A DNA stretch of 64,000 nucleotides, from the IMG/VR virus record IMGVR_UViG_3300045988_175002. One strand, 5' to 3'. A model generated the notes under the pieces. The model worked only from the letters and a program-made list of their open reading frames with translations, ran no database searches and was not told where the DNA came from. Numbering within the stretch: the stretch's first letter is position 1; each line of letters starts with the position of its first letter. Positions 3,302 through 31,092 of this stretch are shown here, piece after piece. This stretch comes from a virus. The translations under genes and the position numbers were made by a program.

Positions 3302-4624
3302 TTAAGCCGTCACGGTTTCCTGTTTCGCTGAACGCATGGAGAACATACGCAGATTGTCCGCGTATGACTCCGATGCGTTCTCCACAGGCTTGTATTCCCC
3401 TTGTTCCGAGGGTATTTTGTCTGAATATTTCGATTGTCCCATCCAGACCATGGTTTGAGCGGCTTTGACGTCTCTTGGGGCTTTATATCCGCAGTAGGCG
3501 CATTTGTATGTGCGCTGTTTGAGTGGGATTTTGGTTTTCTTGCCGCAGGTGGGGCACAGTTGTGTGGTCGGCTCCCATTTGGAAAGCGTCACCACCTGAC
3601 TTGTATGACGTGCGAGCCGGTTCTTAACGCGGCCAAGGACACTGTGTTGGGTTTTGCGTCCATAACGACGTTGCCAAGCCTTAACCTGTTCATCCTGCAT
3701 AAAGACAATCTCATTGCGCAACAATTCGGCTGTTATCTTGTTCGCGGCGTCATTGAGACGATTCTGCTGTCTCATATATGCCAAACGGATTCTCATACGA
3801 TTACGCCGACGGTTGTTCGACCCCTTTTTCTTACGGTTCAGTTTTCGCTGTTCCCGCTTGAGGCGGTCGGTTTCTCCAACCATGACATCGTATTCCGTTC
3901 CGTCAGAACATGTTATGGCGGTTTCCACGCCCATGTCCAGTCCGATGACGGTGTTCTTCACCGGCGCGAGTTTTTTGGCTTCACGCCTTTTGTTGTATTC
4001 CTCCTTATCCATATAGCATGTGACATGCAAGTGCCATCCATCCGCCTCACTGGTGAGAACGGCTTTCGCTTGTTCCCAGCCTTCCAATTGTTTGACGCCA
4101 CGCACACGAACCCAGCCGGGAATATTCTGGATTCTCGCCTTTTGTCCACGTATGCGATAAGTGGTCTCCGGTTGCGGAAGCCCAAGAGACCTGACTTCGT
4201 TGGTGAATCCAACATTGCCGACCTTGCGCCCTTGCTTTTTGAGGGTGGCGAGCGTCTTGATGTTGGAACGGATGGTTTTGACCAAAGACTGCTTCATCTG
4301 CGAGCCAAGCGTCCGGTACTCGCGTTCGTCCATCATGCCGTCCTTGGTTTTCACGAGGACGTTTTTCCTTGGCTTGTAGGAGAGCGGGTCTCCGCTGGCT
4401 ATGCATTCGTTCCACAGCCATTTCGCTTCCAAGAACACGCGGACCAGTGCCTCACGCTGGGTGTGGGATAGTTTGTTGCCCACGATTTTCAAATCGAATG
4501 TGGAGCAGGTCTGCGTTTTCCTTTTGGCTTTGGTCGCCTTGATGGATTCTCTGATTCTGCGGTTCTTGTCCAGCCTTGCCTCTTCGGAGGTTCTGCGCGG
4601 CGAGCCGATGAGACTGACCGTCAT
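3302..4624 (-). CDS. tnpB: IS605 OrfB / TnpB-family RNA-guided endonuclease-like transposase accessory protein
   Basis: 440 aa. C-terminal zinc ribbon CPTCGKK...CAYCGYKAPRDVKAAQ, typical of TnpB/OrfB_Zn_ribbon. RuvC-like D/E residues are present and the overall organisation matches IS605 OrfB. Confidence 0.8.
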   Translation of the reverse strand: MTVSLIGSPRRTSEEARLDKNRRIRESIKATKAKRKTQTCSTFDLKIVGNKLSHTQREALVRVFLEAKWLWNECIASGDPLSYKPRKNVLVKTKDGMMDEREYRTLGSQMKQSLVKTIRSNIKTLATLKKQGRKVGNVGFTNEVRSLGLPQPETTYRIRGQKARIQNIPGWVRVRGVKQLEGWEQAKAVLTSEADGWHLHVTCYMDKEEYNKRREAKKLAPVKNTVIGLDMGVETAITCSDGTEYDVMVGETDRLKREQRKLNRKKKGSNNRRRNRMRIRLAYMRQQNRLNDAANKITAELLRNEIVFMQDEQVKAWQRRYGRKTQHSVLGRVKNRLARHTSQVVTLSKWEPTTQLCPTCGKKTKIPLKQRTYKCAYCGYKAPRDVKAAQTMVWMGQSKYSDKIPSEQGEYKPVENASESYADNLRMFSMRSAKQETVTA

Positions 4625-5371: not shown

Positions 5372-5680
5372 TTAGTTCAGAAGTCCGGAGCGATACAGAA
5401 TCCTGCGGATATTGATGCTGTGGACGAAAGCGGTGTCAGGCTGTCCAACGAAGTCGGCAAGCTGCTCGTCGGAGCAAGTCTCGTCAACGGCGGCATCCAA
5501 AACCACCTCGGTCGGAGAGTCGAACATCCTACAGCCGACGCCGTCATGCCCCTCAATGTGCTCGAACAAGGCGAAGTATGTCATGTTCTCGTCTGCAACA
5601 CGCAACATGACATAGGAGGTATTGCCGTTGTGGAAGATGTTGTAGTCTGCTGCGCCGAATCGTGCGAAATACTCGTTCAT
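5372..5680 (-). CDS. hypothetical protein (102 aa)
   Basis: ATG at 5678-5680 with an AGAGAAAGAG ribosome-binding site. Lies 21 nt downstream of motif M4. Confidence 0.5.
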   Translation of the reverse strand: MNEYFARFGAADYNIFHNGNTSYVMLRVADENMTYFALFEHIEGHDGVGCRMFDSPTEVVLDAAVDETCSDEQLADFVGQPDTAFVHSINIRRILYRSGLLN

Positions 5681-5700
5681 TTTGGCTCTTTCTCTCATAT

Positions 5701-5722
5701 TTGTGTGAACAATTCCAGTATA
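5701..5722 (-). promoter_or_regulatory. conserved promoter/operator-like motif copy M4
   Basis: ttgtgtgaacaattccagtata. The minus strand has TGCTATACT (extended -10-like). Confidence 0.55.
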
Positions 5723-5857
5723 GCATATTTGAGAGAAAGAGCAAAAACACAAAACACAAAAAGCCGCGCAAACGCAAAAGCATCCACACGACTCGATATT
5801 TTTTCACCACTATACGGAGGGCGGTGCGGTTCCCTCCGCCGCAGTAGGTGCTACCGA

Positions 5858-7199: not shown

Positions 7200-8690
7200 T
7201 CAGACAGTATTCTGTAGCACTGTCTGAATAATCTTGACCTCCGTCGGAGTCCCCCGCCTATGCGGTTTGTTGCGACATGGAGTAGCCCCACTCGTTTGGG
7301 CGTCGCCCACCAAATGATTGTCATGGTGGACGTATCGGTTCGCATGCTCATTGTTGAGTATGCGAACGATTTCCTGTTTGCGGATGGAACGCCAGCCATT
7401 CTCCCGAGAACGTCTCGAAAGAATATTGCGGCTTGCGTTGATGTCCGCGTGCAGGGTCGTTCCGCAGCATTTGCAACGGAACAAGTTTCTTGTCGGCCTA
7501 TTGTTCCTAGCCGTGTACCCGCAGTGGGAGCATTGTTGGCTGGTGTAGGCGGGATTGATTTCAGTAACGGTGACGCCGTCTAGTTCCTGAATACGTTTCA
7601 GTTTCGCTTCCACTGCGGCTCGACCGGTTCTGGTAAGCAACCGGTTCATCTTATGACTGAGATTCAGGTTACGGAAGTCAAGTTTTTCAACGACGATTTC
7701 CTTGACTTGTTCCTTGCTGAGCTGGTTGAACAGTCGTCCAATCTCATTCCGATAGTAGGCTCGTATGCGCCGTTGTAGATTACGGTATCTTCTAGACTTG
7801 GATGGTTTCACACCATTCTTCTGTAAGGCGCGAGTCAGTTCGATAAGCTCCGTGTCACGCTGTTTCAGCCAGTCGAACATTCGGGTGCCCAACAGTCGGC
7901 CATCGGATAGGGCGAACATGCAATCCATACCCCAGTCCAATCCCAACGTTTCGCCTTGGGTTCGTTTTTCTGCTTTAGGCAAGGTAGTAATCAGCTTTCC
8001 GTTGACACTGCCGTCCAAGTTGAAGCGAATGGTCAGATAGTTCGACAAGGTTTCATTGTTAAGGAAAAGATTCTCGTCCAGTTTACGGTCTGCGAGTATC
8101 GGCACGCGAACCGGCTTGCCGGATTCCAAAGTTGACACGACAGCCCAACGTTCGCACTTGGTGTTCTTCGCGTTCTCTATTCGGGCAATCTTGCCGTCCA
8201 TATCCATGGTTCGGCATTTCGATAAGTCTGGGATTCGGTTTCGACGACGTAGATGTTTCATCAACCAACGAGCCATATAGTGCGTTTTATCATCGGAGTG
8301 CTCATACCATGCGTATCGCAGGTTGATTTCGTACAGGTCACGTTTAAGATTGTCTTCCAAAGTGGAATGGTATACGAGACTACGAAACTCATTCTGACGG
8401 TTCGTCAGCCATGAATCGAAGGTGGCTTTCGCTTGACGGGATACGGAATCCCATTGCCGTTGGGACAAATAGTCAGGAAAGGTTTTAGTGCTCTGCCATG
8501 TGGATAGGCTACCGGTCTCGAACAGTTCACGACACCACTGATTCAGGGAATAGGTTAATCCTTTACGCCATATCGGAAGCAGTCGAAACAGCTTATCCAA
8601 CTTGCCATGATTCATCGGCAATGCCACGCCGTAGGATTTGTGCGCCACACCGGTTTTCATACCACGACGGTATCTACTTGTCGGCATTAT
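7200..8690 (-). CDS. tnpB: TnpB/OrfB-family protein of IS607-type element
   Basis: C-terminal CSHCGYTARNNRPTRNLFRCKCCGTTLHADINASRNI zinc ribbon typical of TnpB. The likely start MPTSRYRR overlaps the tnpA 3' end. The track ORF is extended upstream to 8756. Confidence 0.75.
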   Translation of the reverse strand: MMPTSRYRRGMKTGVAHKSYGVALPMNHGKLDKLFRLLPIWRKGLTYSLNQWCRELFETGSLSTWQSTKTFPDYLSQRQWDSVSRQAKATFDSWLTNRQNEFRSLVYHSTLEDNLKRDLYEINLRYAWYEHSDDKTHYMARWLMKHLRRRNRIPDLSKCRTMDMDGKIARIENAKNTKCERWAVVSTLESGKPVRVPILADRKLDENLFLNNETLSNYLTIRFNLDGSVNGKLITTLPKAEKRTQGETLGLDWGMDCMFALSDGRLLGTRMFDWLKQRDTELIELTRALQKNGVKPSKSRRYRNLQRRIRAYYRNEIGRLFNQLSKEQVKEIVVEKLDFRNLNLSHKMNRLLTRTGRAAVEAKLKRIQELDGVTVTEINPAYTSQQCSHCGYTARNNRPTRNLFRCKCCGTTLHADINASRNILSRRSRENGWRSIRKQEIVRILNNEHANRYVHHDNHLVGDAQTSGATPCRNKPHRRGTPTEVKIIQTVLQNTV

Positions 8691-9252
8691 CATCCTCCAC
8701 CATAGCGGCCATTGCGCGTGCGCGTTGAGACCTGCGTTGCCCGTACAGGCGCGCACTGAACGAGTAGATTATCGACACGAAATCCTGAATCAGGTCGGCA
8801 CGGTCATCGGAGGCTTCGTTCACTACGACTATCTTTCGTCCGTCACGTTCAATGAATAGACGGAACCATTCAAAGCCGAAACGGGTCAGCCTGTCCTTAT
8901 GCTCTACTATCAGGGTGCCCCAATCGTCGCGTTTGAGCAATGAGGTGAGCCGACGTCTCTTGTCGTTTAATCCGGAACCCACTTCAGTAACGGACGCAAC
9001 CACTCGATAACCATTAGCAACAGCCCACTCCTCCATGCGCTTCTGCTGGTCAGGGAGTTGGGTTTTACGTTTCGACGGGTCGGAGACACGGGCATAAATG
9101 GCGGCATCATTGAGTTTGACCGCGCTCTCGTCCGGCACGATGATGGTGCCGGACTCATCCTGCCAAGCGCCGGGTATCTTACCAGCCTTGAACCTGTTCC
9201 ACGCGGCACGGTATTGGATACCGTGCTTGGCCGCGTACTCCGATAACTTCAT
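8674..9252 (-). CDS. tnpA: IS607-family serine recombinase TnpA (MerR-like HTH + resolvase catalytic domain)
   Basis: 192 aa. An N-terminal HTH (KLSEYAAKHGIQYRAAWNRFKAGKIPGA) is followed by AAIYARVSDPSKR, which contains the serine-recombinase catalytic Ser motif. Confidence 0.8.
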   Translation of the reverse strand: MKLSEYAAKHGIQYRAAWNRFKAGKIPGAWQDESGTIIVPDESAVKLNDAAIYARVSDPSKRKTQLPDQQKRMEEWAVANGYRVVASVTEVGSGLNDKRRRLTSLLKRDDWGTLIVEHKDRLTRFGFEWFRLFIERDGRKIVVVNEASDDRADLIQDFVSIIYSFSARLYGQRRSQRARAMAAMVEDDNADK

Positions 9253-17929: not shown

Positions 17930-17964
17930 GAAAAAGCCCCTCAGTCGAGGGGCTTTTCTTTTTG
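17930..17964. terminator. bidirectional rho-independent terminator
   Basis: aaaaagcccctcagtcgaggggcttttctttttg. A GC stem is flanked by an A-run and a T-run. It sits between the convergent genes ending at 17857 and 17965. Confidence 0.65.
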
Positions 17965-18972: not shown

Positions 18973-19580
18973 TCACCATCCTCACTATTAGAGGCGAGTC
19001 GGGTTCGGAGTTCCCTCAACCGGCCTAACCGTTCCTCCACAGCCTGAATACGAACGTCAACCGCAGTCAACGTGTCACCATCCGGCTCAGACAACTCATA
19101 CTTGCCGGACGACAGTCGTTCCAGAAAACTGGTGGGAACATCCCATACCAATAATCGGAGTTTGTCGGGACTGAGATTCAACCCCGTATACAAGCCGGTT
19201 TTAGGCCACATGCCATCCACGAGAGCCACATTCGGCATCATGCGCGGTGGACGGTCGGGCTGATATTTTTCGACTAGGATTCGACCAGCGAACCAGATAA
19301 TGTCGCTATCCTGCTTGGAGTACGCGTACAAGTAGTCGTAGGGGTCGATGGTGACTGTGACACGCTTTTCAGCGTCCACGCCCTTATGCCACCAGAAATA
19401 TTTGTCTAAAGCTTCGAACACCAGCCTTTCCACACGCATATCGAACGTCCAAGTCTTCAACTTGTCATCAAACGTTCCACCCAACGCGCGGGAGCGACGT
19501 GCGAACAACGGATTATACGGAGCCTTAACCTTCAAACGGACATCACTGCGAGTGACCGTAATATCATCAAAACCTGCCAT
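18969..19580 (-). CDS. hypothetical protein (203 aa)
   Basis: ATG start. Overlaps the next gene by 4 nt, suggesting translational coupling. Lies downstream of the DGR reverse transcriptase. Confidence 0.5.
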   Translation of the reverse strand: MAGFDDITVTRSDVRLKVKAPYNPLFARRSRALGGTFDDKLKTWTFDMRVERLVFEALDKYFWWHKGVDAEKRVTVTIDPYDYLYAYSKQDSDIIWFAGRILVEKYQPDRPPRMMPNVALVDGMWPKTGLYTGLNLSPDKLRLLVWDVPTSFLERLSSGKYELSEPDGDTLTAVDVRIQAVEERLGRLRELRTRLASNSEDGE

Positions 19581-19849
19581 GACAGTTTCCTTTCACTCAA
19601 ACGGCATACTCTGACCAATGCGCTGATAACCTCTAAAGCCCCACATGGGCGAAGTCCCGAGGAAGGAAATGCAAGTAAACCCAGTGTAACACCAAGCTGG
19701 GAAGAAAAACTAGCCGACAAGCATGCCGAGTGAAATACGATACAATCCAAGCCTCACGAAATCTCATCCAAACGATTGAGGAAGCGGAAGATTCTGCGCC
19801 ACCGCTTCCAGCAGATTACACCCCTCCACCAATCTGGAAAGTCCGGAAA

Positions 19850-21079
19850 TCACGGGTGAAAAGCCAGCTTCCGCATTTCACAATGCCTCCGATACCACGC
19901 TTTCTCCCGAGCGCACAGTCCACGACGGTGAGTTAGACCCGACAGTGTGCTCTCATGGCTCGTCCAAGAATCCTGAACTGTCCGCAATCCCACATGCACG
20001 CCATCATATGAGCGGATAAAGTTACGCGCATGCCGTCGGCTTGCACGCAACGCCTTATGGTGCATGCGGATAAGAATACTGCCGTCATCCTGTACGCTGT
20101 ATACGCGTTTCAGGAATGTGAGTTGACCGGTGCGACAGTCCACTATGCGGGTCTTGCGCTTGTTCAACCGCAATCCCAATTGATTGACATGCCGCTCGTA
20201 ACCGGCCAGCACACGTTCGGCCTGTTCACGATTCTTGCAGAAACAGTAGGCATCATCCATATACCGTCCGTAGAATCCTTGCGACATGCACCAGTGGTCA
20301 ACCTTGTTCAAATACCAGATAGCCATGGTTTGGCTTGTCTGATTGCCTAAACCCAAGTGAGGTTCGTCCAATACGAAGATTCTCAATACGGTTAGAATCC
20401 GTTCCACATCCTGCTTCTCCCGTCCGGTGCGGGCGATGCTCCGGTACAGGGTGGAAATCATATCGAACGCTCGTTGGGAGCTGATACTTCCGAAATAGTT
20501 GGAACAGTCGAAGATGACAGCATACGGATGCTCCCATTTGCCCAAAGCCCGCTTATAGTGTAGTTCGAACCGTTTTCGGGCGAACGATGTTCCACGTTTC
20601 GGTAGGCTTGCCGCATTATCGTATATCAGTTGGCTTTCCACGATGGGGACGAGACTGTTGTCGCATAAGGCGCGTTGCACCACCCGGTCTCGGAAGGATA
20701 CCGCGCTGATGTGGCGGAGTTTGCCTCGTTCGGAAATGTCGAATCGGATTGGCGCTCTCTTCTTGTATGTGCCGTCCTCTAATTCTTGGGCGAGTTTCCA
20801 ACAGTTGACGGCACGCCTATTGTCGAAGTTCAACACTGTGTTTTTCCATGTGACGCCGCGTTTGCATTTTCTTGCGGCTTGGTAGAGCGCGTCGAATCCG
20901 AATGTTTGTTGGAAGTCGATGTAACGGTGGAGCTTCCTGTACTTATCATCCGAGCGTTGTTGCAGTCTGCGTTGGCGTCTTCTACGTCTTTGACTCGCAT
21001 TCACGATTTTAATGCTTCCTTCACTAGGGAAAGAGAAAAGAATGGTTGAGGGCAGGTCGTCGGCAACAACCCAAGACAT
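19850..21079 (-). CDS. DGR-type reverse transcriptase
   Basis: RT motifs are present. RVVQRAL...IYDNAASLPKRGTS covers motifs 1-2. FDCSNYFGSI is motif A. LGLGNQTSQ is the DGR-specific [I/L]GxxxSQ, in place of the group II QGxxxSP. YGRYMDDAY is YMDD. The protein is ~400 aa. It has a ~45-aa Arg-rich N-terminal extension (ATG at 21079; an alternative GTG lies near 21012). Confidence 0.85.
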   Translation of the reverse strand: MSWVVADDLPSTILFSFPSEGSIKIVNASQRRRRRQRRLQQRSDDKYRKLHRYIDFQQTFGFDALYQAARKCKRGVTWKNTVLNFDNRRAVNCWKLAQELEDGTYKKRAPIRFDISERGKLRHISAVSFRDRVVQRALCDNSLVPIVESQLIYDNAASLPKRGTSFARKRFELHYKRALGKWEHPYAVIFDCSNYFGSISSQRAFDMISTLYRSIARTGREKQDVERILTVLRIFVLDEPHLGLGNQTSQTMAIWYLNKVDHWCMSQGFYGRYMDDAYCFCKNREQAERVLAGYERHVNQLGLRLNKRKTRIVDCRTGQLTFLKRVYSVQDDGSILIRMHHKALRASRRHARNFIRSYDGVHVGLRTVQDSWTSHESTLSGLTHRRGLCAREKAWYRRHCEMRKLAFHP

Positions 21080-21261
21080 GCAATGATGTTGGACGCCCAG
21101 CTTAAGGGGCGAGTATCCGTCGTTTCCGACAGTCTTAATATCTCCCTCAACCTATTTCACACGCAACCCATTTTTCGAGGGGCCGCGCATTCGACCATAT
21201 CCCCTTCCCCTTCGGGAGGCTTTCACCCATTGGGCTACTGGCCTATCTGATGTTAGTTTTT

Positions 21262-21427
21262 GGTAAGAGGAATCGGGGACAACGGAGTAGCGATTGTTGG
21301 CATTGTTGTTGTAGCTGGGGTCGCCGTTCGAGTTCACTTGGAGGAAATTGTTGTTGTTGTTCGGGTTGGGCGAACGCTCCCACCAATTGTTGTTGTTAGC
21401 ACCAAGAGGAGTGGAACCGGAAACGGT
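21262..21427 (-). repeat. DGR template repeat (TR)
   Basis: ~165 bp, 91% identical to the 3' end of the target gene (offset 798 bp). The coding strand encodes ..NSNGDPSYNNNANNRYSVVP.. and is rich in AAC/AAT codons. All 15 mismatches to the VR fall on TR coding-strand A positions. Confidence 0.85.
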
Positions 21428-21469
21428 GTCACCATAGTTTGGATATGGCCGATTTTGTTCAATTATATT

Positions 21470-21985
21470 TTAGGCTTGCGCCCGAGTATCCATTATAGTG
21501 TTCGTTTTCGACTCGGCGTTTTTAGCTTTCTTCAACTGGTCTCGCTCATACTTGACGGCTCCGGTGAACACGCCCATCGCCTTGTAGAGGGTTCCCGCAT
21601 AGTTCACGAATTTCTTCTCCTTGACGACGGGATTGTATCTGGGGTCGCCTTCCGGATATTTCCTGTAGGCTTCCAAGTCTTTTTCCCGTGGAGGAAACTC
21701 CATCCAATCGTCCACAAGACCGGAGAGTGAGTTCAGCATGCCTTGGGCCTTGCACAACAGTTGCAGTTTCATCTCATGCTCTTCTACAGTGCTTGCATAA
21801 ATGATGTCGGCACTGTAGGCGGAGGAGTACATTTCGTAGGCGATATGCATGACATGCACGGTTTCAATGCAGTTACGGCTTTTAGGCCATTTGCGGAACA
21901 GATTTCTGGTAGCCAAGAGCACGATTCTGGCCTGATTCGCATATTCGCTTTTGGCTTTTGTACGTTTGCTTGCGGGAACCGTCAT
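21470..21985 (-). CDS. avd: putative accessory variability determinant (Avd-like small basic helical protein)
   Basis: 171 aa, basic (K/R-rich). ATG with an AAGGAG ribosome-binding site. It lies between the target and the TR, exactly where avd is found in DGRs. The assignment rests on position, size and charge, not on a recognised motif. Confidence 0.45.
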   Translation of the reverse strand: MTVPASKRTKAKSEYANQARIVLLATRNLFRKWPKSRNCIETVHVMHIAYEMYSSAYSADIIYASTVEEHEMKLQLLCKAQGMLNSLSGLVDDWMEFPPREKDLEAYRKYPEGDPRYNPVVKEKKFVNYAGTLYKAMGVFTGAVKYERDQLKKAKNAESKTNTIMDTRAQA

Positions 21986-22017
21986 AGGACTCCTTTTGTG
22001 TGAGATTTGAGTTTGGA

Positions 22018-22045
22018 GGGGTGGTGGGGATGAACCCCACCACCC
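22018..22045. other. perfect GC-rich hairpin immediately 3' of VR (DGR target-recognition hairpin candidate)
   Basis: gggtggtgggg-atgaa-ccccaccaccc is an 11-bp perfect stem with a 5-nt loop. It lies 15 nt past the target stop codon. No U-tract follows on either strand. Confidence 0.6.
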
Positions 22046-22057
22046 AAGGATTGGGGA

Positions 22058-22990
22058 TTAGAAGGAGAAAGCGGGGACAACGGAGTAGCGATAGTTGGCA
22101 CTGTTGTAGTAGCTGGGGTCGCCGTTCGAGTTCACTAGGAGGAAATAGTCGTAGTAGTCCGGGTCGGGCGAACGCTCCCACCAACTGTAGTAGTAAGCAC
22201 CAAGAGGAGTGGAACCGGAAACGGTCTTGTAGATGCCGGAGAGAATGCTATTACCCGACCAGTTATTTGTCACCTTACCGTGGAAATACTCGTATTGGCT
22301 TCCCTCCTGATTCAACGCTTGGAAACCACCAGAGGTCTTCCAACCATCGTATAAGGTTGGTACGAGTTCACGGTAGGAGACGAGCCATACTTTGTCTGCC
22401 GTGGCTGACGCGCTTGAACCGACTGTGCTTCCGTAGGCCATGTTGTTGGTTTGTTTCAGCACGGTTGTGACGTTGTTTTGGAAGTCGGTTGGGAATTGGT
22501 TCCAGATTTCACCATTGTTCATCTGATTGCGAAGAAGACTGTCACGCCAGCCGCCATTATTGGTGTGACTATTGTTCATGGCATACGCTTTCGGTAACGC
22601 GTTCCAAGCCATGAACGTCAATCCTGCTTTTCGTCCACTTCCGTCGGCTTTGTCGTCGTGGAGGATGCCGATGAGTCGGAATGGGAGGTTCGAGCCGTCT
22701 GATAGGGTGAGCGTGCCTTTGACCCCGTCGGTCAGGTTCTTTTCCATTGCGGCATAGTATGTGCTTCCTTTGCCTTTCTCGCTTAAATCGTCGGCAATCT
22801 GTTTCAATCCCGCCGCGTTATAGCCCGCGTAGCAAACCTTGTCCACGCCAGTATTGCATTTGGCTGGTTCGGCGGCTATTGCACTACCGGTGAGGAAGCC
22901 GCCGCAGACCGCGCTCATGATGGCGAGGGTGGCGAGGAGCCGCCGAACCATGTGACGGCTCCCGTGTGATTGTGTGGCGTGTTTGCCCAT
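22058..22990 (-). CDS. DGR variable (target) protein: secreted protein with C-terminal variable CLec-fold-like region
   Basis: ATG at 22988-22990 with a GAAAGGA ribosome-binding site. The signal peptide is MVRRLLATLAIMSAVCGGFLTGSAIA|AEP. The C-terminal ~50 residues (..YYYSWWERSPDPDYYDYFLLVNSNGDPSYYNSANYRYSVVPAFSF) are encoded by the VR. The WLVSYRELVPTL / YSVVP pattern resembles DUF1566/Lcl-type DGR targets; this resemblance is tentative. Confidence 0.75.
   Translation of the reverse strand: MGKHATQSHGSRHMVRRLLATLAIMSAVCGGFLTGSAIAAEPAKCNTGVDKVCYAGYNAAGLKQIADDLSEKGKGSTYYAAMEKNLTDGVKGTLTLSDGSNLPFRLIGILHDDKADGSGRKAGLTFMAWNALPKAYAMNNSHTNNGGWRDSLLRNQMNNGEIWNQFPTDFQNNVTTVLKQTNNMAYGSTVGSSASATADKVWLVSYRELVPTLYDGWKTSGGFQALNQEGSQYEYFHGKVTNNWSGNSILSGIYKTVSGSTPLGAYYYSWWERSPDPDYYDYFLLVNSNGDPSYYNSANYRYSVVPAFSF
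22060..22225 (-). repeat. DGR variable repeat (VR) at 3' end of target gene
   Basis: Aligns to the TR at an offset of 798 bp. The 15 substitutions are A->T (9), A->G (5) and A->C (1) on the coding strand, all at TR adenines. Homology ends a few nt before the stop codon, which marks the IMH-like boundary. Confidence 0.85.
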
Positions 22991-23001
22991 TCTTGTTCCT
23001 T

Positions 23002-26000
23002 TCACTGTTCTTCCTTCTTTCGTAGGAGGATGATTGCCGCGACGAGTCCGCTGATGCTGACGAGCATGAGGAGCGGCAACAGCAATCCCATGCCTGTGTG
23101 CGGCATGGTCGCCAACCATGTTTCAGGCAGGACACCCGCATCCACATGCTCCTTGGTTGGAGCATCTTGGGTGAGGGTGATGGTCAGCTTGTTGTCTTCG
23201 TCCGTGTAAGCGTCCGAATCAGTGGAGCTTCCATCCGTCGCAGGGGTCTTGTCTCCCACATCCGGCGTGGTGAAGTCCCGGTGGTTCACTTTGGTGAATT
23301 GGATACGGTATTTGTTGCCGTTCGCGTCCAGACGTTCGAAAATGTACTTGCCATCCTTGTCGGTCTTGGTGGTTGCCAACTGTTTGCCGTTCTCGTCAGT
23401 CAGAATGACCGTCTGACCGGCGAAATGCGTGTTCTCACCTTCATCTTGGATGCCGTTCTTGTTGGTGTCCTCCCAGTACAGGCCGCTGATGGAACCGAGT
23501 TTCTTCGCGGTGGTGGTTGGTGTGATGATGGTGCCGACTTGGTCGCAGGAGTCCTCGTCGGACGTGCTGAACCAGTGTTGGCGTCCTTCCTCCGTATAGT
23601 CCGTGTCGGTGCGGCATGTCGGATTGCCGGTCACATCATTCGTGTTGGTGTCCAGTTTCGTAGCGTCCGGAGTGTTCGGCGTGGTTTTGCCGATTGCGTG
23701 TGGCGTGCCCGAGTATGGTGTGTGTTCGGAGTCGAACCATGCTTGGTTGAGAATGGTCTTCGTATTCTTCTTAACCCACTCGTCAATGTACGACTGGTCT
23801 TTGCCTGTCATGTCAGCGGTCTCACGGTCAACTGTGCCGGTGAAATGGTAGATGACATAACCGCCCGGCTCAATCGCATACGGCAGATTATACGTGCGAG
23901 TAGTCAACCCATTCTCAGTGGTTTCGCTCGATGGCTCGACCGGTACGGCGGTTGGGTCGGACGATACCGCCATACCTTTCAAACCGGTGGAACGCGCGCC
24001 ACCCGTCTTACCGTCACCATACGGGTCGAAGCCCGCAATCATGACCTGTTTGCCAAGAATGAGCACGTCACGGTCGCCACCCGCCACGTCGGATGCGATG
24101 ATGCCCGTATCGACTGGGCCGATGACGTCCGTGTTGTTACCGGTGGAGCCGTTCGTCCAATACATGCCGTTGCCGGTCTTGCCGTTCGCCAATTGTCCGT
24201 CACCATTCCAGCCTGAGGCCCACAAGTGTTGGTTCTTGTCGATGGCGTACAGGGTATTGTATCCGCCGCTGATTTTCACAATGTCCTTCAAACCGGACAA
24301 GGTAGCACTATAGGTCGAGAACCAGAACACCGTCCCATCGTCTTTTAACGCGTACATTTGACCAAACGCGGCGGCGACTTGCGTGTAACCGCCACTGGAA
24401 AGCTGTCCCAAGGAAACGCCTGTACCGGAGTACAGGTATCCGCCGGACGTGTTCAAGGCGATGAAACCTTCCATGCTCGCACTGAGTTGAGTGAACTTGA
24501 CACCAGAACCGATTTGCGTCCAAGCCGCATAGTTCTGACTGCCTACAGCGTTTCCAACACCCCACAAAGTTCCGTCACTGGCGATGGCGACGGTGAACTG
24601 GTTGCCGCATGCCACGTCCGTGAACGTCTTATCCGAAGCGACTTCCGTCCACTGGTCACGATTATCCGTATCACCCGTACCCAATTGGCTGCTACCATTC
24701 CAACCGGTCGTATACAGGTGGCCGTCCGTGCTGATGGCGGCGGAATGTTTGCCACCGGCGGCGATTTTCAGCCAACTACCGTTGATGATGGTCGGCTTGT
24801 TCACGTTCGTTGGAGTGGCAGAATTCGTCGTGTCAGGCTTGAAACCAAGCTGACCATACTGGTTATTGCCCCACGCATACAACAAGCCCTCGCTCGTCAA
24901 CACGAACTTATGGTCGCCACTCGTCGCGACCTGCTTCGCGCCACCAGATTCGATGGAAACTGTACCGGCGGTAGCGGAAACATCATGCACATCAGCGCTC
25001 ATACGGTCAGAAACGACACTGGACGTGTCAAAACGACTAGTGCCAGAATTCTGTACTTTGACATCCCAGTTGATGACGCATTTCGTATCAGTGCAACTGG
25101 TGCCGGTGACGGTTTTGTCCACGGTGGCTTTCGGGTCTGGTTTCGCGTAACCGTAATCCACGCTGGTCTGGTTGATGCCGATAACCAAGTGGATGTCGTC
25201 GGAAGTGTCTTTCGCATTGGACTTGATTTTGTTCGACCAGCTTCGCGTGTTCACCACGTCTTCAAGCTTGTCGTAGTAGGTTTTGACCTGCGTCTGCACG
25301 CCATCACCCGTACTGGTGCCAGTGTTGCGTTTCACCGAAGTGCGGTAGGTGCCGGAGTGGAGTAGGTCGAACTCGTAATGACCGTCCTTATCGGTCTTCA
25401 CCGTTTTGACGGTCTGCCAGCCGCCGCTTGAATCCTGCTTGCCGAGGGTGACTTCCACCCCTTCGACACGTTCCTCACCGTCTCCGATGAGCGTGTTCTC
25501 ATCCTTATCCCACCAGACGGTGCCGCTGATGCTACCGGCCACTACCTTCGCCACGTCAGGCCACGGCTGGTTGCCCGCCGGTTTGTCGGAAGCGTCGGAA
25601 TAATAGTTGCGACCAAGCCACAGCGTGTACTTGTCGTCTTTCACATTGTCGGATGGGGTGAGTGTGATGGTGCCGTTCACCGCCGAATAGGACAGTTTAT
25701 CGTCAGACGCGACGACAGTGCTGGTCAGTCGGATGGCAGTGATGTTCTTCTTCTCGATGGCGGACAATTCATCCCATGTCTTCCACTCGTAGTCAGCCGG
25801 ATTATCCGACTTCTTTCCGGTGGTGGTTGAATAGTAGACGGTCGTACTGGTCGAATTGTCCATATTGACCGTGACGGGCTGGGTCAGTTCGTAGGAGCCA
25901 TGATAGTTGCTGTATCCACGCTCGTATTCGACCAGCTTGTCCTGCACGTACTTCTCATCACCATTCGCAGGAAGCAGTAGCATGCTATCCATGGTGCCGG

Positions 26001-28377
26001 TGTGACCGCCGCCCTTGCCGTACACGTTGAACTCCCAAGTAAGCGGGTCACTGATTTCAGCCTTCGTGGTCTTCACACGCATGATGCCACTGTTGGTTTC
26101 CGCATTGGAGACAGGGAATGGGACGCTGGGCGTATTGCTTTTGATGGTTTGGGCTTGCAATGCGCCGTTCTCGTCAACGTCCACGCTCATATTCGCACTG
26201 GCGGTCACAGTCCCGGTGGCGAGATTGGATACGATGCCACTGAAATGCAGGTCAGGCAAAGTGGCCGACCCCATACGGTCTACTTCAGGCGTGACTTTGC
26301 CAGAACGTGGCGTGAACACGAGATTATTCCCGTCCACTTTCATCTGCCAGAACGAATCATCACAGGTCGGATTGTACAAGCCTTTCGGTTTCGGCACCGT
26401 GATGGTCGGCGTCATGCTCGTATTGGACAGGAGAATGGTGCGCAACTGTTCCGTGACCGTATAATCCACTCGCATGCCGGGAATCAAATCGACTGCGCTT
26501 CCGGACGGGTGATTGGAACTGTTGTTCGCATACACTTGATTGCCTTCACCATCGTAGGCTTTCAGACTGATGTCGATACTGGTGGTCGGGTCTACCGGCT
26601 TGGCAATCCACACCCAATTGGTGACGCTCGCCTTATCGTCTTCGGTAAGCCATGCGGTCAGCGTATCCAAAGCTTCCACATTGCCTTTGGACACGTCGGC
26701 TATGGCGAGCGTGTTGAACGTGACCTGAACGTTCGGCGCACCCTTTCCTAAAGTCAACGTGTCGGGGTTGAACGTCACCCGAATCTTCTTGACGTTCGGA
26801 GCGTCCGTGTCGGATGGTTCCCCGTCATGCCAATTGTCTTTGCTATCAGCCCATTGAACTTTGTAGTCGGAAACCGGAGCACCGTTCTGGGTGACTTCCA
26901 AGCTTCCATCCCACCGCATGCGCGTATTATCCCACTCATCCTGCATGGTCGGCGTAGTGTTTTTAAGCTTGTCCGCAGTAACGTTCGCCGCATACATTTC
27001 CAAAATGGTTTTGACTTGCGTTCCACGGGACACGGTGTCGCCGGAACCGTCGGAATAGTAATGGTAGATGTCGGCTTTGCCTTCGGCGGCGTCGAACGTC
27101 AGATTCTCCTTGTCGAACATGGTCTTGGACGCAGTGTTAGGACGTTGCAGTCCTTTGCCGAACAGTGGAATCTTGCCAGCTGGAGTCGGCTTGAGCCGTT
27201 GGATGATGGCTCGTGACCAGTCATTGTTCGCGTACGGGTAGCCGACGCGGGCACCCGTATCCTTGTTGTAGGTGCTCTTGTCCCGTCCAATGTTCCAGCC
27301 GGGTTCGCCGCCCTTGCCCATGTTCAACAGTGCGTTGCCGTTATCGTCTTTGACGCTGAACACGGTTTCGTCGGGAACAAGGTGGACATCGTAATATTTG
27401 ACGTCTCCTTCTTTCATGTTTTTGAGCGCGTCGGTTCCGGCGGGAATCCTGTAGCTGATTGTCGCCGCCGTACCGTTTTTGCCACTGGATACGGTCAAAT
27501 ACTGTTCTTTATCACTGTTACGGGTAATCCGCTGACCGCCTACAGTCCACACGGTGCCCTGCGGGAAGTCGGAAATATCCACTTTGGTAGTCCAATCGAT
27601 GCTGGTGGACGCGCCCTTCGTGGACGAATAACCCGGATAGGTCAACGCGTCGGTACGAATAGTGAAATCACCGGTCGCATCGGTGTTCTGACTCCAATAA
27701 GTACGATGCTCATACGAGTATTGGCCTTTCACCGGATTGCCGCCATTGTCAATGACCAAGTCAGCCGCCGGAGCGGATACTACAGTCAGCTCATCCGTAC
27801 GATACGTGGTTGACGTTCCACCTTCGCGGGCGACGACGATTTTCGGAATCTGACCCGGCTTGACCAAGCCTCCCGTGTCTTTTGCTTTCAGATAGAAGGT
27901 TTGGGTCATGGTTTCCACGCCACCGGCTGGAACCGTGTAGGAGCAGGAGCCGTCACTGTTTTTCTTCGCGGTGACGAGTTGTCCCGGCTGGCAGAAGCCA
28001 CCACCGTCAGCAGTCTGCAAATACGGCGCGTCATCCAAGTCGAACTTCACGTTGATGGTACGCTTGCCCGCCGCGTTGAAGTTCAACGTGAGAGAATATT
28101 CGACCGTATCACCGGATGCGACCACGCCATCGGTAGGGGAATCATCGCCCGTGGCGAACCCGTTCTTCGAATTCACGAACGTTTGCGAACTCGTGCCATG
28201 CCCCGTACCGTCGGCTTTCTTAACGATTTTCGCAGTAGCATATGCGGGTTTCAACTCGTCCGCATGCGCTTTCGGAGAGGCTACCGGATTGGTCATGCAT
28301 ATCAGGCCGGATGACAGTGTGGCGATTGCGGCCAATAATGCTACCGGATGTGCCACATGCTTTTTGAGAATACCCAT
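23002..28377 (-). CDS. giant LPXTG-anchored surface adhesin with RCC1 beta-propeller repeats and CnaB/SdrD-B-type domains (~1790 aa)
   Basis: Own start at ATG 28375-28377 with an AAGAAGGAA ribosome-binding site. Signal peptide MGILKKHVAHPVALLAAIATLSSGLICMTNPVASPKAHA. Repeated YxWGxNxxGQLG RCC1 blades. Multiple prealbumin-like B domains of the form GxVWxDxDxNGxxD...DGxYxF. C-terminal LPHTG, followed by a hydrophobic helix and RKKEEQ. In the ORF track it is fused to the sortase ORF. Confidence 0.75.
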   Translation of the reverse strand: MGILKKHVAHPVALLAAIATLSSGLICMTNPVASPKAHADELKPAYATAKIVKKADGTGHGTSSQTFVNSKNGFATGDDSPTDGVVASGDTVEYSLTLNFNAAGKRTINVKFDLDDAPYLQTADGGGFCQPGQLVTAKKNSDGSCSYTVPAGGVETMTQTFYLKAKDTGGLVKPGQIPKIVVAREGGTSTTYRTDELTVVSAPAADLVIDNGGNPVKGQYSYEHRTYWSQNTDATGDFTIRTDALTYPGYSSTKGASTSIDWTTKVDISDFPQGTVWTVGGQRITRNSDKEQYLTVSSGKNGTAATISYRIPAGTDALKNMKEGDVKYYDVHLVPDETVFSVKDDNGNALLNMGKGGEPGWNIGRDKSTYNKDTGARVGYPYANNDWSRAIIQRLKPTPAGKIPLFGKGLQRPNTASKTMFDKENLTFDAAEGKADIYHYYSDGSGDTVSRGTQVKTILEMYAANVTADKLKNTTPTMQDEWDNTRMRWDGSLEVTQNGAPVSDYKVQWADSKDNWHDGEPSDTDAPNVKKIRVTFNPDTLTLGKGAPNVQVTFNTLAIADVSKGNVEALDTLTAWLTEDDKASVTNWVWIAKPVDPTTSIDISLKAYDGEGNQVYANNSSNHPSGSAVDLIPGMRVDYTVTEQLRTILLSNTSMTPTITVPKPKGLYNPTCDDSFWQMKVDGNNLVFTPRSGKVTPEVDRMGSATLPDLHFSGIVSNLATGTVTASANMSVDVDENGALQAQTIKSNTPSVPFPVSNAETNSGIMRVKTTKAEISDPLTWEFNVYGKGGGHTGTMDSMLLLPANGDEKYVQDKLVEYERGYSNYHGSYELTQPVTVNMDNSTSTTVYYSTTTGKKSDNPADYEWKTWDELSAIEKKNITAIRLTSTVVASDDKLSYSAVNGTITLTPSDNVKDDKYTLWLGRNYYSDASDKPAGNQPWPDVAKVVAGSISGTVWWDKDENTLIGDGEERVEGVEVTLGKQDSSGGWQTVKTVKTDKDGHYEFDLLHSGTYRTSVKRNTGTSTGDGVQTQVKTYYDKLEDVVNTRSWSNKIKSNAKDTSDDIHLVIGINQTSVDYGYAKPDPKATVDKTVTGTSCTDTKCVINWDVKVQNSGTSRFDTSSVVSDRMSADVHDVSATAGTVSIESGGAKQVATSGDHKFVLTSEGLLYAWGNNQYGQLGFKPDTTNSATPTNVNKPTIINGSWLKIAAGGKHSAAISTDGHLYTTGWNGSSQLGTGDTDNRDQWTEVASDKTFTDVACGNQFTVAIASDGTLWGVGNAVGSQNYAAWTQIGSGVKFTQLSASMEGFIALNTSGGYLYSGTGVSLGQLSSGGYTQVAAAFGQMYALKDDGTVFWFSTYSATLSGLKDIVKISGGYNTLYAIDKNQHLWASGWNGDGQLANGKTGNGMYWTNGSTGNNTDVIGPVDTGIIASDVAGGDRDVLILGKQVMIAGFDPYGDGKTGGARSTGLKGMAVSSDPTAVPVEPSSETTENGLTTRTYNLPYAIEPGGYVIYHFTGTVDRETADMTGKDQSYIDEWVKKNTKTILNQAWFDSEHTPYSGTPHAIGKTTPNTPDATKLDTNTNDVTGNPTCRTDTDYTEEGRQHWFSTSDEDSCDQVGTIITPTTTAKKLGSISGLYWEDTNKNGIQDEGENTHFAGQTVILTDENGKQLATTKTDKDGKYIFERLDANGNKYRIQFTKVNHRDFTTPDVGDKTPATDGSSTDSDAYTDEDNKLTITLTQDAPTKEHVDAGVLPETWLATMPHTGMGLLLPLLMLVSISGLVAAIILLRKKEEQ

Positions 28378-29283
28378 TAGTGTTCCTTCTTTGCGTGGTT
28401 TTTTTCTACGGATGATGAGAATGGTGATGATGATTACCGCAAGCCAGAAGCCGCCGACGTACAGTATGAGCCATTGGTTCGTGTGGTCTTTCGGCGCGTT
28501 TTCGGGTCTGGGTGCGGGGTGCGGCATGCTGGCGCGCGTGCCGGTCACTAGGAGTCGCTTGTTGTTGATGCCGTATGGCGTGCAGGTTAGGAGTGTGGCG
28601 AGGTCTTTTCCGGCGACGATTTTCAGTTTGGTGAAATCGGATGGGTCTACCACATCAATGCTTGTGACCTTGTAGGCGAGCGTATGTCCGGCGGTTATCA
28701 GATAGAAGACGTCACTTTTTTTGGCTTCACTGCCGAAGCCTCGTAGCTTGTCGAACATGAGCTGGTCTGCCAAACCCGTATGCGCGGATATGACAGTATG
28801 CGTGTTCTTGCCGCCGACGGGGAGACTGGAACCATATAAGTGTCCGGCTCCAGCGGCCAACACGTTTTGCGACGTGCCATGCCGGATGGGCAGGTTGATG
28901 CCCAAGCGTGGATATTTGATGGTAGCCATGACCCCATCCTTGGGGGTGGATAGTTGCTTCCGATACGTGTTGTCCGTTTCGGACTTGTTGACGCCCGTCC
29001 AAGGGTCTTCCGCCTCACCAAGAATGGGCTGACCCTCCTCGTATAGGCGTTGATTGTAGGCTTTCGCGTCCGCATACTCTTGGGCGATTCGTTTCACGTC
29101 AGTGTTTTCCACGGCTTGCGCGTGGGAGTCAGTCAACCGGTTGGATTGGCTGCTATTCGAAATCATGAGGATGAATGGGATGGTTCCGGACAGGGCGGAT
29201 AGGATTAGGCAGAGGAGTCCCGCTATGGCTCGATTTCCCAAGCCTTTCGGTTTCGCCGTATGTTTTCCCAAAACCCCTCCCAT
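28378..29283 (-). CDS. srtC: class C (pilus-associated) sortase; no in-frame stop before the adhesin start
   Basis: Contains VISAHTG (catalytic His), TLLTCTPYG (the TLXTC catalytic Cys) and a downstream Arg (LLVTGTRA). An N-terminal TM is followed by a C-terminal TM, WLILYVGGFWLAVIIITILII, and then RRKKPRKEG. The reading frame continues without a stop into the adhesin. Confidence 0.7.
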
Positions 29284-29400: not shown

Positions 29401-31092
29401 TCACGCCTTGCGACGAAGCAGCAGGGCGGAAGCGCCAGCCAACAGGACGGTCATCACGCCGAAGATGGACAGCCAGACCGCACCGGTCTTCGGCATGTCG
29501 GCAATGTTACGGGCGTTGATGACGGTCACACCCAGATGGTCGGCGTTCTCGGAAGCCAGATTGTTGGCGTCCTTATCGAACTGACTGAGCGTGTAGGAGC
29601 CGTTCGATTGGTTCACCTTGATGGTCAGGGTGAACTGCGGCAGGATGGAGCCATTGAACGGACTCTTTGTCTCCTTGACCGTGTACTTGCCGTCGAGACC
29701 AGTCAGAGTGAGCACGCCATTGCTAGTAGCGACGCTGGTGACGGTGTCGGTGGTGCCGGTGCTCTCGGTCAGGTCGGCCTTACGGTACGTATTGTCGTTC
29801 ACCTTGATGAACTTGACCGGAGTGGCGGTCTGGTTGCCCTCGTACACCTTGAACTCAGCTCCGGCGAGCGGCGCGTTGTTCGTGTCGTGCTTGGTGAGGG
29901 TGAACTTGCCGACGTACACCTTGTCGGTCTGACCCGGAGTGGTCTTATGGTCGGTGACAGTGTTCGGGTTGTGGGAGTATTCGACGTTGTTGGTGTTGGT
30001 GTCGGCGGTGCCGGAGACGGCGTTCTTGTTCACATACATGTCGTAAGTGACTTTGACGGCGGCATCGACCGGGAACTTGGCTTTCATCGCCACGATGTCG
30101 GATGCGGTGGTGGAGTCACCGGTGGTCGGAGCGAAGATGATGTGGAACTTGCCATCCTCAGTAGTGACCTTGTAATCGGTGTCGCGGATGAGGGTCTTAC
30201 CGTCCACGGTCACGACCATGTTGTCCTTGGCCGCGTCATAGGTCAGGCCCTTGGAATACGTATCGTTGATGGCGTAATAGTACTTGTCGTAGCCAGTCCA
30301 GTTCGGCACTTTGCTGGTCATTTCGAAGCTGACCTTCTTGCCGATAGCGGTTTCGGCGGTCGCGCCACTGTTTTCGACGGTGCCGTTTTCGGCGGCGGTA
30401 ATCTTCTTCGTGACGGTGGTGCTGTGTACCTTATAGTTCACGGTGCCCAGTGTGTAGGTCTTGGCGCCGTTCTTCAACATAGTCTTGCCGTCGATGCCAG
30501 TGCCGTTGAACATGACGATGGATGCCTCGCCCTTGACGGTGGTGTCCACTACCGCATATACGCCCGGACGGACGGATGCGGTCATGTGCTGGGCGTCGGC
30601 GCCCTTGGCGAACGCGGTGCCCTTGTCGCCGGTGACGGCGGTCTCGTTCTTCAACTGGTCGAGGAAGTCACGAAGCTTGCCAGCCCACGGACTGTTCTCG
30701 GAATCAAGCAAGTTCTGTACGACCCACACCATCGGATTGGACGCATTATAGTCGTATCCGGCAGTCTGGTCTTTCTTGGACTTGGTGTCGATATTGGCTT
30801 TAGTCAATGCGTCAGCGATAGCAGAAGCCTTGCCCGCGTCAATCAAGTCAAAGCCAGTAATATTAGTACCATCAGTCTGCGCATACGAATAGTAGGCGAG
30901 CGGCACAGCCTTCAACGTGCGATTGCTAATATCACCATTAGCAGTGACGGTCAACGTCTGACGAGCAGCCGCACCAAGCTTGGATGCGTCAACACGAGCA
31001 TCAGCCGCCATGGCGGAGCCGACTCCAGCCAAACCCATGGCACCGGCCACAAGCGTGGCGACCGTTGCCTTCAACAGGTTTTTGGTTTTCAC
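29401..31092 (-). CDS. sortase-dependent pilin-like surface protein (563 aa) with CnaB-type domains
   Basis: GTG start with an AAGGAAAGGAAA ribosome-binding site. Signal peptide MKTKNLLKATVATLVAGAMGLAGVGSAMA. The YVGKFTLTKHDTNNAPLAGAEFKVY stretch is CnaB/isopeptide-domain-like. The C-terminal sorting signal is DMPKTG, followed by a hydrophobic helix and RRKA; the MPKTG is non-canonical. Confidence 0.65.
   Translation of the reverse strand: MKTKNLLKATVATLVAGAMGLAGVGSAMAADARVDASKLGAAARQTLTVTANGDISNRTLKAVPLAYYSYAQTDGTNITGFDLIDAGKASAIADALTKANIDTKSKKDQTAGYDYNASNPMVWVVQNLLDSENSPWAGKLRDFLDQLKNETAVTGDKGTAFAKGADAQHMTASVRPGVYAVVDTTVKGEASIVMFNGTGIDGKTMLKNGAKTYTLGTVNYKVHSTTVTKKITAAENGTVENSGATAETAIGKKVSFEMTSKVPNWTGYDKYYYAINDTYSKGLTYDAAKDNMVVTVDGKTLIRDTDYKVTTEDGKFHIIFAPTTGDSTTASDIVAMKAKFPVDAAVKVTYDMYVNKNAVSGTADTNTNNVEYSHNPNTVTDHKTTPGQTDKVYVGKFTLTKHDTNNAPLAGAEFKVYEGNQTATPVKFIKVNDNTYRKADLTESTGTTDTVTSVATSNGVLTLTGLDGKYTVKETKSPFNGSILPQFTLTIKVNQSNGSYTLSQFDKDANNLASENADHLGVTVINARNIADMPKTGAVWLSIFGVMTVLLAGASALLLRRKA

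Follow-up and report, generated by a model that had tools for sequence, protein, structure and literature searches.

A GC-rich inverted repeat with a TTCAT loop as the probable target-site hairpin of an active DGR

What is a perfect GC-rich inverted repeat doing in the 73-nt gap between the target gene of a DGR and the ORF that follows it? The window considered here, i.e., the whole stretch of 64,000 nt of IMG/VR record IMGVR_UViG_3300045988_175002, carries on its minus strand, in this order, a target gene with its VR, a stop codon, 12 nt, the inverted repeat, 33 nt, an accessory ORF, the TR, a 180-nt spacer and a reverse transcriptase (RT) gene. An initial annotation, made from the letters alone, had placed avd, TR and RT downstream of the repeat on the same strand; that context is all there, the identity of the accessory ORF as Avd aside. 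The features needed for the argument are:

22058–22951, minus strand: target gene, probable start ATG at 22951 (MVRRLLATLAIMSAVCGG..., signal-peptide-like); the ORF is open up to 23119
22058–22225, minus strand: VR, 168 nt, the 3′ end of the target gene, repeated at the TR
22058–22085, minus strand: IMH-like 3′ end of the VR, a GC-rich segment CTCCGTTGTCCCCG, then CTTTCTCCTTCTAA ending in the stop codon
22046–22057, minus strand: spacer from the target stop codon to the stem, 12 nt, TCCCCAATCCTT in sense orientation
22019–22045, minus strand: GC-rich inverted repeat (hairpin/cruciform), marked by a perfect stem, conservation and covariation
21470–21985, minus strand: accessory ORF in the avd position, 171 aa, with an RBS (AAAGGAG) between the hairpin and its ATG
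21260–21427, minus strand: TR, 168 nt, without an inverted repeat after it
19850–21079, minus strand: DGR-type reverse transcriptase, 409 aa (RVT_1, E 3e-13)
17932–17957, unstranded: canonical bidirectional intrinsic terminator, AAAAGCCCC-TCAGTCGA-GGGGCTTTT, with T-runs on both strands

On the plus strand the repeat consists of GGGTGGTGGGG (22019–22029), ATGAA (22030–22034) and CCCCACCACCC (22035–22045); on the sense (minus) strand these become a 5′ arm GGGTGGTGGGG (22045–22035), a loop TTCAT (22034–22030) and a 3′ arm CCCCACCACCC (22029–22019). All 11 pairs of the stem are Watson-Crick, 9 being G-C, and the stem closes a loop of 5 nt. The initial annotation had found the same perfect 11-bp GC stem after the VR, but started it at 22018, one base too early, since G22018 stands unpaired opposite A22046 and the stem begins at 22019; it had also put the hairpin 15 nt from the VR, where the measured gap is 12 nt after the TAA at 22060–22058. 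Its statement that no U-tract follows on either strand holds: there is no T-run after the stem on the sense strand, which continues CTCCAAACTC, or on the other, which continues AAGGATTGGG, and a terminator scan did not flag the site. An Rfam search over 19000–24000 (E ≤ 1) returned no family.

Could such a structure be expected by chance from base composition? Perfect hairpins with stems of 11 bp or more (loop 3–8) number only three in the 64-kb window, the VR hairpin among them; its 27-mer is single-copy in the window and found 0 matches in 100 shuffles. The folding z-score of the region is -4.6 as RNA and -4.3 as DNA, values equalled by none of 200 shuffles. The strongest hairpin in the window lies elsewhere, at 893–928, with a 15-bp perfect stem (AGAATGCCCGTGGAA / TTCCACGGGCATTCT) and a 6-nt loop, and is likewise without a T-tract.

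The DGR itself has the expected parts. In the mutagenised part of the repeats, all 15 differences between TR and VR fall at TR adenines. The last 14 nt of the VR show five differences from the TR counterpart ATTCCTCTTACCAA, fixed in all relatives, which is the IMH/IMH* arrangement. IMH and hairpin are distinct elements (PMC3240598, PMC5758913), and the equation of the hairpin with the IMH region made in the initial annotation has to be given up: the IMH is the last ~28 nt of the VR (22085–22058), and the hairpin lies separately, downstream. It had further been taken to mark the VR boundary where TR/VR homology ends; it is indeed close to that end, but the homology stops 12 nt earlier, at the stop codon. 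The RT carries the motifs LGLGNQTSQ and YMDD in its translation, in agreement with the DGR-clade pattern [LIV]GxxxSQ plus YxDD, and is 28% identical to BPP-1 Brt (E 3e-18), with both motifs aligned. No second VR with a hairpin of its own was found in the window, and blastn with the cassette as query found nothing among GenBank phages.

The accessory ORF is harder to name. Avd is a small, basic four-helix bundle. The ORF had no Pfam match, no sequence match in PDB and no BLASTP similarity to Bbp7 of BPP-1, and a PHROGs search did not yield an Avd identity. A single-sequence AlphaFold model is all-helical, with four long helices (pLDDT 63), and retrieved only generic helical bundles in Foldseek (E > 0.1).

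The C-terminal domain of the target is DUF6273 (E 1.8e-15), which has been described as C-type-lectin-like (PMC10743442). Its start (22949–22951) opens a signal-peptide-like sequence, MVRRLLATLAIMSAVCGGFLTGSAIAAEP, which makes the target look like a lectin that is secreted or at the surface rather than an obvious phage tail fibre. Directly upstream of it, on these contigs filed as viral by IMG/VR, is a pilus/adhesin cluster (23002–29283 and 29401–31092, both minus strand): a class C sortase domain (aa 123–250) reads in frame and stop-free into a surface protein of ~1800 aa that has a signal-peptide-like segment of its own, RCC1 and SdrD-B/SpaA domains and an LPXTG-like C-terminus, and a Gram-positive pilin backbone gene adjoins this sortase/surface-protein gene.

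Is the element working? The same RT (93–100% identical) is present in 18 IMG/VR contigs of 13–217 kb and in 17 metagenome contigs, mostly from the human gut. The DGR is active in nature, because 16 near-identical elements with identical hairpins carry 13 different VRs; among these 16 elements, 41 of the 48 variable VR columns are at TR adenines. Variable columns in the 500 nt upstream of the VR were left out of the comparison, as indel misregistration makes their count unreliable.

Close relatives give a first view of what in the hairpin is constrained. The sub-clade with RTs 65–100% identical, which includes two ENA contigs (80%) and one Logan contig (65–67%), has nine distinct versions of the interval from stop codon to accessory gene, with five stem variants of 8–12 bp: GGGTGGTGGGG, (T)GGTGGGTGGGG, GGGGGTGGGG, GGGGTGGG and (A)GGGGGGTGGGG, each paired with its exact complement. 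A shortened, 8-bp stem is found in the L016 type. In a flank-anchored alignment 98.9% of cells are paired, against 59–73% when the partners are slid by 1–3 columns; at two stem positions both partners have changed, G-C becoming T-A, and one-sided changes are absent, in a set of nine distinct rows drawn from closely related sequences. The same helix is found independently by RNAalifold. Neither the loop TTCAT nor the GTGGGG/CCCCAC next to it varies in the sub-clade; the spacer from stop to stem is 12–15 nt long and variable in sequence, and the sequence 3′ of the stem diverges beyond alignment. Every related locus that keeps the interval between VR and accessory gene thus has an inverted repeat here, with its pairing kept by compensatory changes. 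Probably, then, it is the pairing of the stem that matters and not its sequence, with the TTCAT loop constrained in both sequence and strand.

One nearly identical contig, L009 (IMGVR_UViG_3300045988_187575), lacks the hairpin because a fusion of VR and TR into one repeat (5653–5813) removed the whole 798-bp interval: the IMH end, the hairpin and the accessory gene. The contig is otherwise 97–99% identical. Either VR and TR really recombined here, and the DGR was killed by it, or the repeat collapsed in the assembly.

Does the association with the VR extend beyond close relatives? A genome scan with the single RT as query confirmed nothing, and an RT alignment was used for the repeat scan. It collected ~180 further loci with RT identities of 28–52% from genomes, metagenomes and viral contigs; TR/VR pairs were located by script from adenine-biased mismatches, and hairpins, defined as perfect stems of 7 or more bp, 5 or more of these G-C, were sought between -15 and +75 nt relative to the VR end. 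Such a hairpin is present downstream of the VR in 65 of 101 distinct windows of this kind, downstream of the TR in 0 of 101, and in 2.1% of 5050 random windows from the same loci. With one or two mismatches allowed, the VR count rises to 80 of 101, and several apparent misses are longer or bulged hairpins, e.g., in L044 and L141. These two relatives (RT identity 46–52%) each have two successive GC-rich hairpins after the VR: in L044 (2590–2690) a 13+4-bp bulged stem with loop CATCGT and a 13-bp stem with loop TATG, and in L141 (2845–2920) a 12-bp stem with loop ATCG and a 9-bp stem with a 10-nt loop.

Across the clade the stems are unrelated in sequence (GGGTGG..., ATCTGCCGC, CCCCCATGCC and others) and 7 to 14 bp long; what they have in common is GC-richness, position and loop. 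In none of the 65 VR hairpins do the 10 nt following the stem contain 6 T or more. The hairpin is thus a VR-specific structure, not a terminator, conserved across the clade; this follows from 65 of 101 against 0 of 101, from the missing T-tracts and from the contrast with the terminator that the genome itself uses, and agrees with the descriptions published for BPP-1 (PMC3240598, PMC5758913). Internal non-Watson-Crick pairs in the 80 homologous hairpins comprise four T.G wobbles on the sense strand (L052, L053, L074, L080) and no A.C; in this small, partly non-independent sample, the wobbles and the strand-specific loop would weakly suggest a structure acting on the sense strand.

The best explanation, and in our judgment a likely one, is that the inverted repeat is the target-site hairpin or cruciform of the active DGR. 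The initial annotation had proposed that it serves DGR target recognition, and the complete cassette, the compensatory changes, the contrast between VR and TR and the likeness to BPP-1 all support this, the role being taken over from the comparison. In such a scheme the RT and the accessory protein would copy TR RNA into adenine-mutagenised cDNA, which would replace the VR; the IMH at the 3′ end of the VR and the GC-rich stem-loop 12 nt beyond it would mark the VR, and not the TR, as recipient. The repeat would extrude when the DNA is unwound or supercoiled, and possibilities for what it then does include: The extruded repeat may keep the sense strand of the VR accessible for annealing or priming by the cDNA, or its structure and loop may be recognised by the DGR machinery or by a host factor. 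We infer here a requirement for the hairpin in homing, a structure at the level of DNA and a factor that reads the loop.

In BPP-1, the hairpin is needed for efficient homing, the stem acting through its structure rather than its sequence and the loop through its sequence (PMC3240598); work in E. coli in 2026 again found that efficient homing needs it (PMC12875486), and even in BPP-1 the stem-loop is not strictly essential (PMC5758913, PMC12875486). There is also a lagging-strand model of DGR homing (PMC12875486); GC skew, as a guide to replication direction, gave no clear trend.

Might the loop instead pair with an RNA of the DGR? For each locus the reverse complement of the loop was sought in the TR-RT spacer of that locus, with a count of 13 against 10.5 ± 2.5 for shuffled loops (p = 0.22); counts for the 3′ end of avd and for the TR were lower still, with no excess over the shuffled-loop control, and the TR-RT spacer of the window contains neither ATGAA nor TTCAT. 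There is no sign of such pairing. It seems more likely that the loop is read by a protein or is needed for a particular hairpin geometry.

Another possibility is that the hairpin does its work in RNA, either as a terminator or attenuator without a U-tract or as a 3′ stem-loop that stabilises the target mRNA, setting the ratio between a plentiful target transcript and a scarce avd-TR-RT transcript; such a role may coexist with one in homing. Folding as RNA gives the hairpin great stability (-25 to -27 kcal/mol), it is placed between two genes, and the four T.G wobbles without A.C would suit a sense-strand structure made of RNA as well as of single-stranded DNA; it has moreover been speculated that DGR hairpins descend from terminator-like structures (PMC3240598). 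The comparative sequences fit a DNA-level and an RNA-level role of the same hairpin alike and cannot separate them. Against an RNA role stand several features of the locus and its relatives. A T-tract is absent here and after all 65 homologous hairpins, whereas the terminators of this genome are canonical and have T-tracts: the one at 17932–17957, 8 nt past the stop (17965) of the last minus-strand ORF, is probably the end of the DGR-containing operon. Only 33 nt, RBS included, separate the hairpin from the ATG of the accessory ORF, too short a stretch to hold a promoter, and expression of avd, TR and RT would accordingly seem to need read-through. The loop sequence and its strand polarity are conserved across the clade, which a stability element or terminator does not need, and terminator features after the IMH were found in only a minority of DGRs by Wu et al. 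(PMC5758913). The RNA reading is thus an unlikely one, and the view of the initial annotation that the hairpin does not look like an intrinsic terminator stands. Nor is it the operon terminator: it has no T-tract, no promoter would fit behind it, and the operon has its terminator elsewhere.

It is much less probable that the palindrome is a duplex-DNA site for a dimeric protein, e.g., a repressor of the avd-TR-RT genes. A perfectly two-fold symmetric repeat, whose 11-bp arms are separated by 5 bp and which lies shortly before the accessory gene, would suit such a protein, and symmetric changes in both arms would be expected of half-sites too; the stems of the clade, however, are unrelated in sequence and vary in length (7–14 bp) with GC-richness, position and loop kept, which is how a structure behaves and a sequence-specific operator does not; what is conserved is an asymmetric loop of strict polarity, and the conserved cassette includes no HTH gene.

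Least probable of all, to the point of being hardly credible, is a chance or selfish palindrome without a role in the DGR, such as a subterminal hairpin of IS200/IS605 type: there are two TnpB/OrfB_IS605 (Cas12f-like TNB) genes in the window (3302–4624 and 7200–8756, both minus strand) and one in the 80%-identical relative L040 (4650–6083, 2.4 kb downstream of the RT), and the 17-nt core of the hairpin, GTGGGGTTCATCCCCAC, also occurs in 8 unrelated viral contigs, but the 27-mer is unique in the window with no copy near the TnpB genes, the hairpin is 12–15 nt from the VR stop in all relatives whether TnpB is present or not, and its enrichment after the VR, against 0 of 101 after the TR, cannot be explained by a mobile element.

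Two further ideas were tried and dropped. The occurrence of GTGGGGTTCATCCCCAC in 8 unrelated viral contexts means that the sequence itself is not diagnostic, and the hairpin cannot be treated as a fixed-sequence element. A G-quadruplex or i-motif, suggested by the G-run and C-run arms, does not agree with the homologous stems of the clade, which are not rich in G-runs. Three of the contigs with GTGGGGTTCATCCCCAC are related viral ones in which it has a conserved, non-DGR context (L226 76–92, L229 3523–3539, L230 2434–2450), with flanks ...ggccgtcc...ctccaagtg... and ...gtttcagaaagaacttgag....

If the repeat is the target-site hairpin of the DGR, its most unusual feature is the loop. The published consensus is a 7–10-bp stem with a 4-nt GRNA loop on the sense strand, 4–34 bp from the VR (PMC3240598), and MyDGR searches for exactly this combination: a 7–10-bp stem with a GRNA tetraloop at 4–34 bp (PMC6602519). 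The distance in the window (12 nt; 12–15 nt in the sub-clade) falls within the published range, and the stem, at 11 bp, narrowly exceeds it; the loop, with 5 nt reading TTCAT on the sense and ATGAA on the antisense strand, fits GRNA on neither. Set beside characterised DGRs, as the initial annotation had suggested, the hairpin thus departs from the BPP-1 type in loop size and, by one pair, from the 7–10-bp range in stem length.

This departure is common to the clade and not peculiar to the window locus. Among 50 distinct VR hairpins (unique in stem plus loop), 36 have loops of 5–7 nt whose last two sense-strand letters are purine-T, and loops of the opposite polarity are absent; among 146 other hairpins of the same loci the rate of such loops is 7.5% (Fisher 2e-18, not corrected for phylogeny). 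The 16 pentaloops reduce to Y-T-Y-R-T (YTYRT), with positions 3–5 invariant in the class, a pattern that TTCAT fits; the 21 hexaloops reduce to C-T-K-T-G-T (CTKTGT). GNNA tetraloops account for at most 6 of the 79 detected hairpins, all of them with the most distant RTs. No description of such a loop class was found in the literature searched, and it may have been published elsewhere. The chances seem about even that these are a second, uncodified class of DGR target hairpins, in which strand-specific loops of 5–6 nt, pyrimidine-rich on the sense strand (YTYRT; CTKTGT), replace GRNA, and which predominates in a large clade of DGRs of gut-associated Firmicutes and Actinobacteria and their phages.

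Assuming that such a class exists, loop identity would co-vary with the lineage of the RT and accessory protein, and the loop would be a specificity determinant for the DGR machinery or for a lineage-specific host factor. Present hairpin detectors would then under-count DGR hairpins: the window hairpin and most of the clade would escape the MyDGR rule. Since these hairpins lie outside the rule of 7–10 bp plus GRNA, the reported rarity of hairpins (34%) may partly reflect the rule used in the search. A loop conserved in sequence and polarity and yet unlike that of BPP-1 would also offer a handle on what recognises the target during integration of the cDNA. Is the reader of the loop the complex of RT and accessory protein, or a host factor? 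Loop swaps between clades could tell the two apart, and knowing the reader would make it easier to bring mutagenesis tools built on DGRs into Gram-positive hosts. For the present locus, the hairpin would show where the recipient site of an active DGR ends on its 3′ side, on large human-gut contigs filed as viral by IMG/VR. The cis-element is of a known kind and varies it in a new way; ordinary otherwise, it offers a modest lead in its loop class.

Several known structures resemble the hairpin in part. Like it, intrinsic terminators and the target hairpins of group IIC introns are GC-rich stem-loops at the 3′ end of a gene; the group IIC introns are related to DGR RTs and recognise stem-loops of this kind in the form of single-stranded DNA (PMC3240598). 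Unlike intrinsic terminators, the window hairpin has no U/T-tract and transcription must continue past it into avd-TR-RT; unlike a group IIC target, its site has nothing inserted and no intron is present. The closest likeness is to the hairpins of DGRs themselves. A survey of 372 DGRs found GC-rich inverted repeats downstream of the IMH in 34% (Wu et al., 2017, PMC5758913), and the window repeat shares with these its position, its GC-richness and, as in most of them, the absence of terminator features; in the RT clade studied here, by contrast, 64–79% have a hairpin. The nearest precedent for lineage-specific and tightly constrained loops other than GRNA is that of the nanoarchaeal DGRs, whose hairpins have GRA triloops (Paul et al., 2015, PMC4372165): there the sense loop is 3 nt long and purine-rich and the hairpin lies inside the target ORF, while in the window the loop is 5 nt long and pyrimidine-rich and the hairpin is intergenic.

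The system that can be compared most fully is BPP-1, with its hairpin downstream of the VR1 of mtd (Guo et al., 2011, PMC3240598). The succession of target with VR, hairpin, accessory gene, TR and RT is the same in both; both have a perfect GC-rich stem downstream of the IMH, with no counterpart after the TR and no T-tract, and in both the stem sequence is free with pairing kept, and the loop is conserved and strand-specific. The BPP-1 sequence, examined directly, has an 8-bp stem, GCGGGGCC-GAAA-GGCCCCGC, that overlaps the TAG stop and ends 12 nt from the ATG of the accessory gene, whereas the 11-bp stem in the window, with its 5-nt loop TTCAT, begins 12 nt after the stop and is followed by 33 nt before that ATG. 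Changing the BPP-1 loop from GAAA to CTTT, or enlarging it by 2 nt, abolished homing (PMC3240598), and the loop requirement must therefore differ between BPP-1 and the system in the window.
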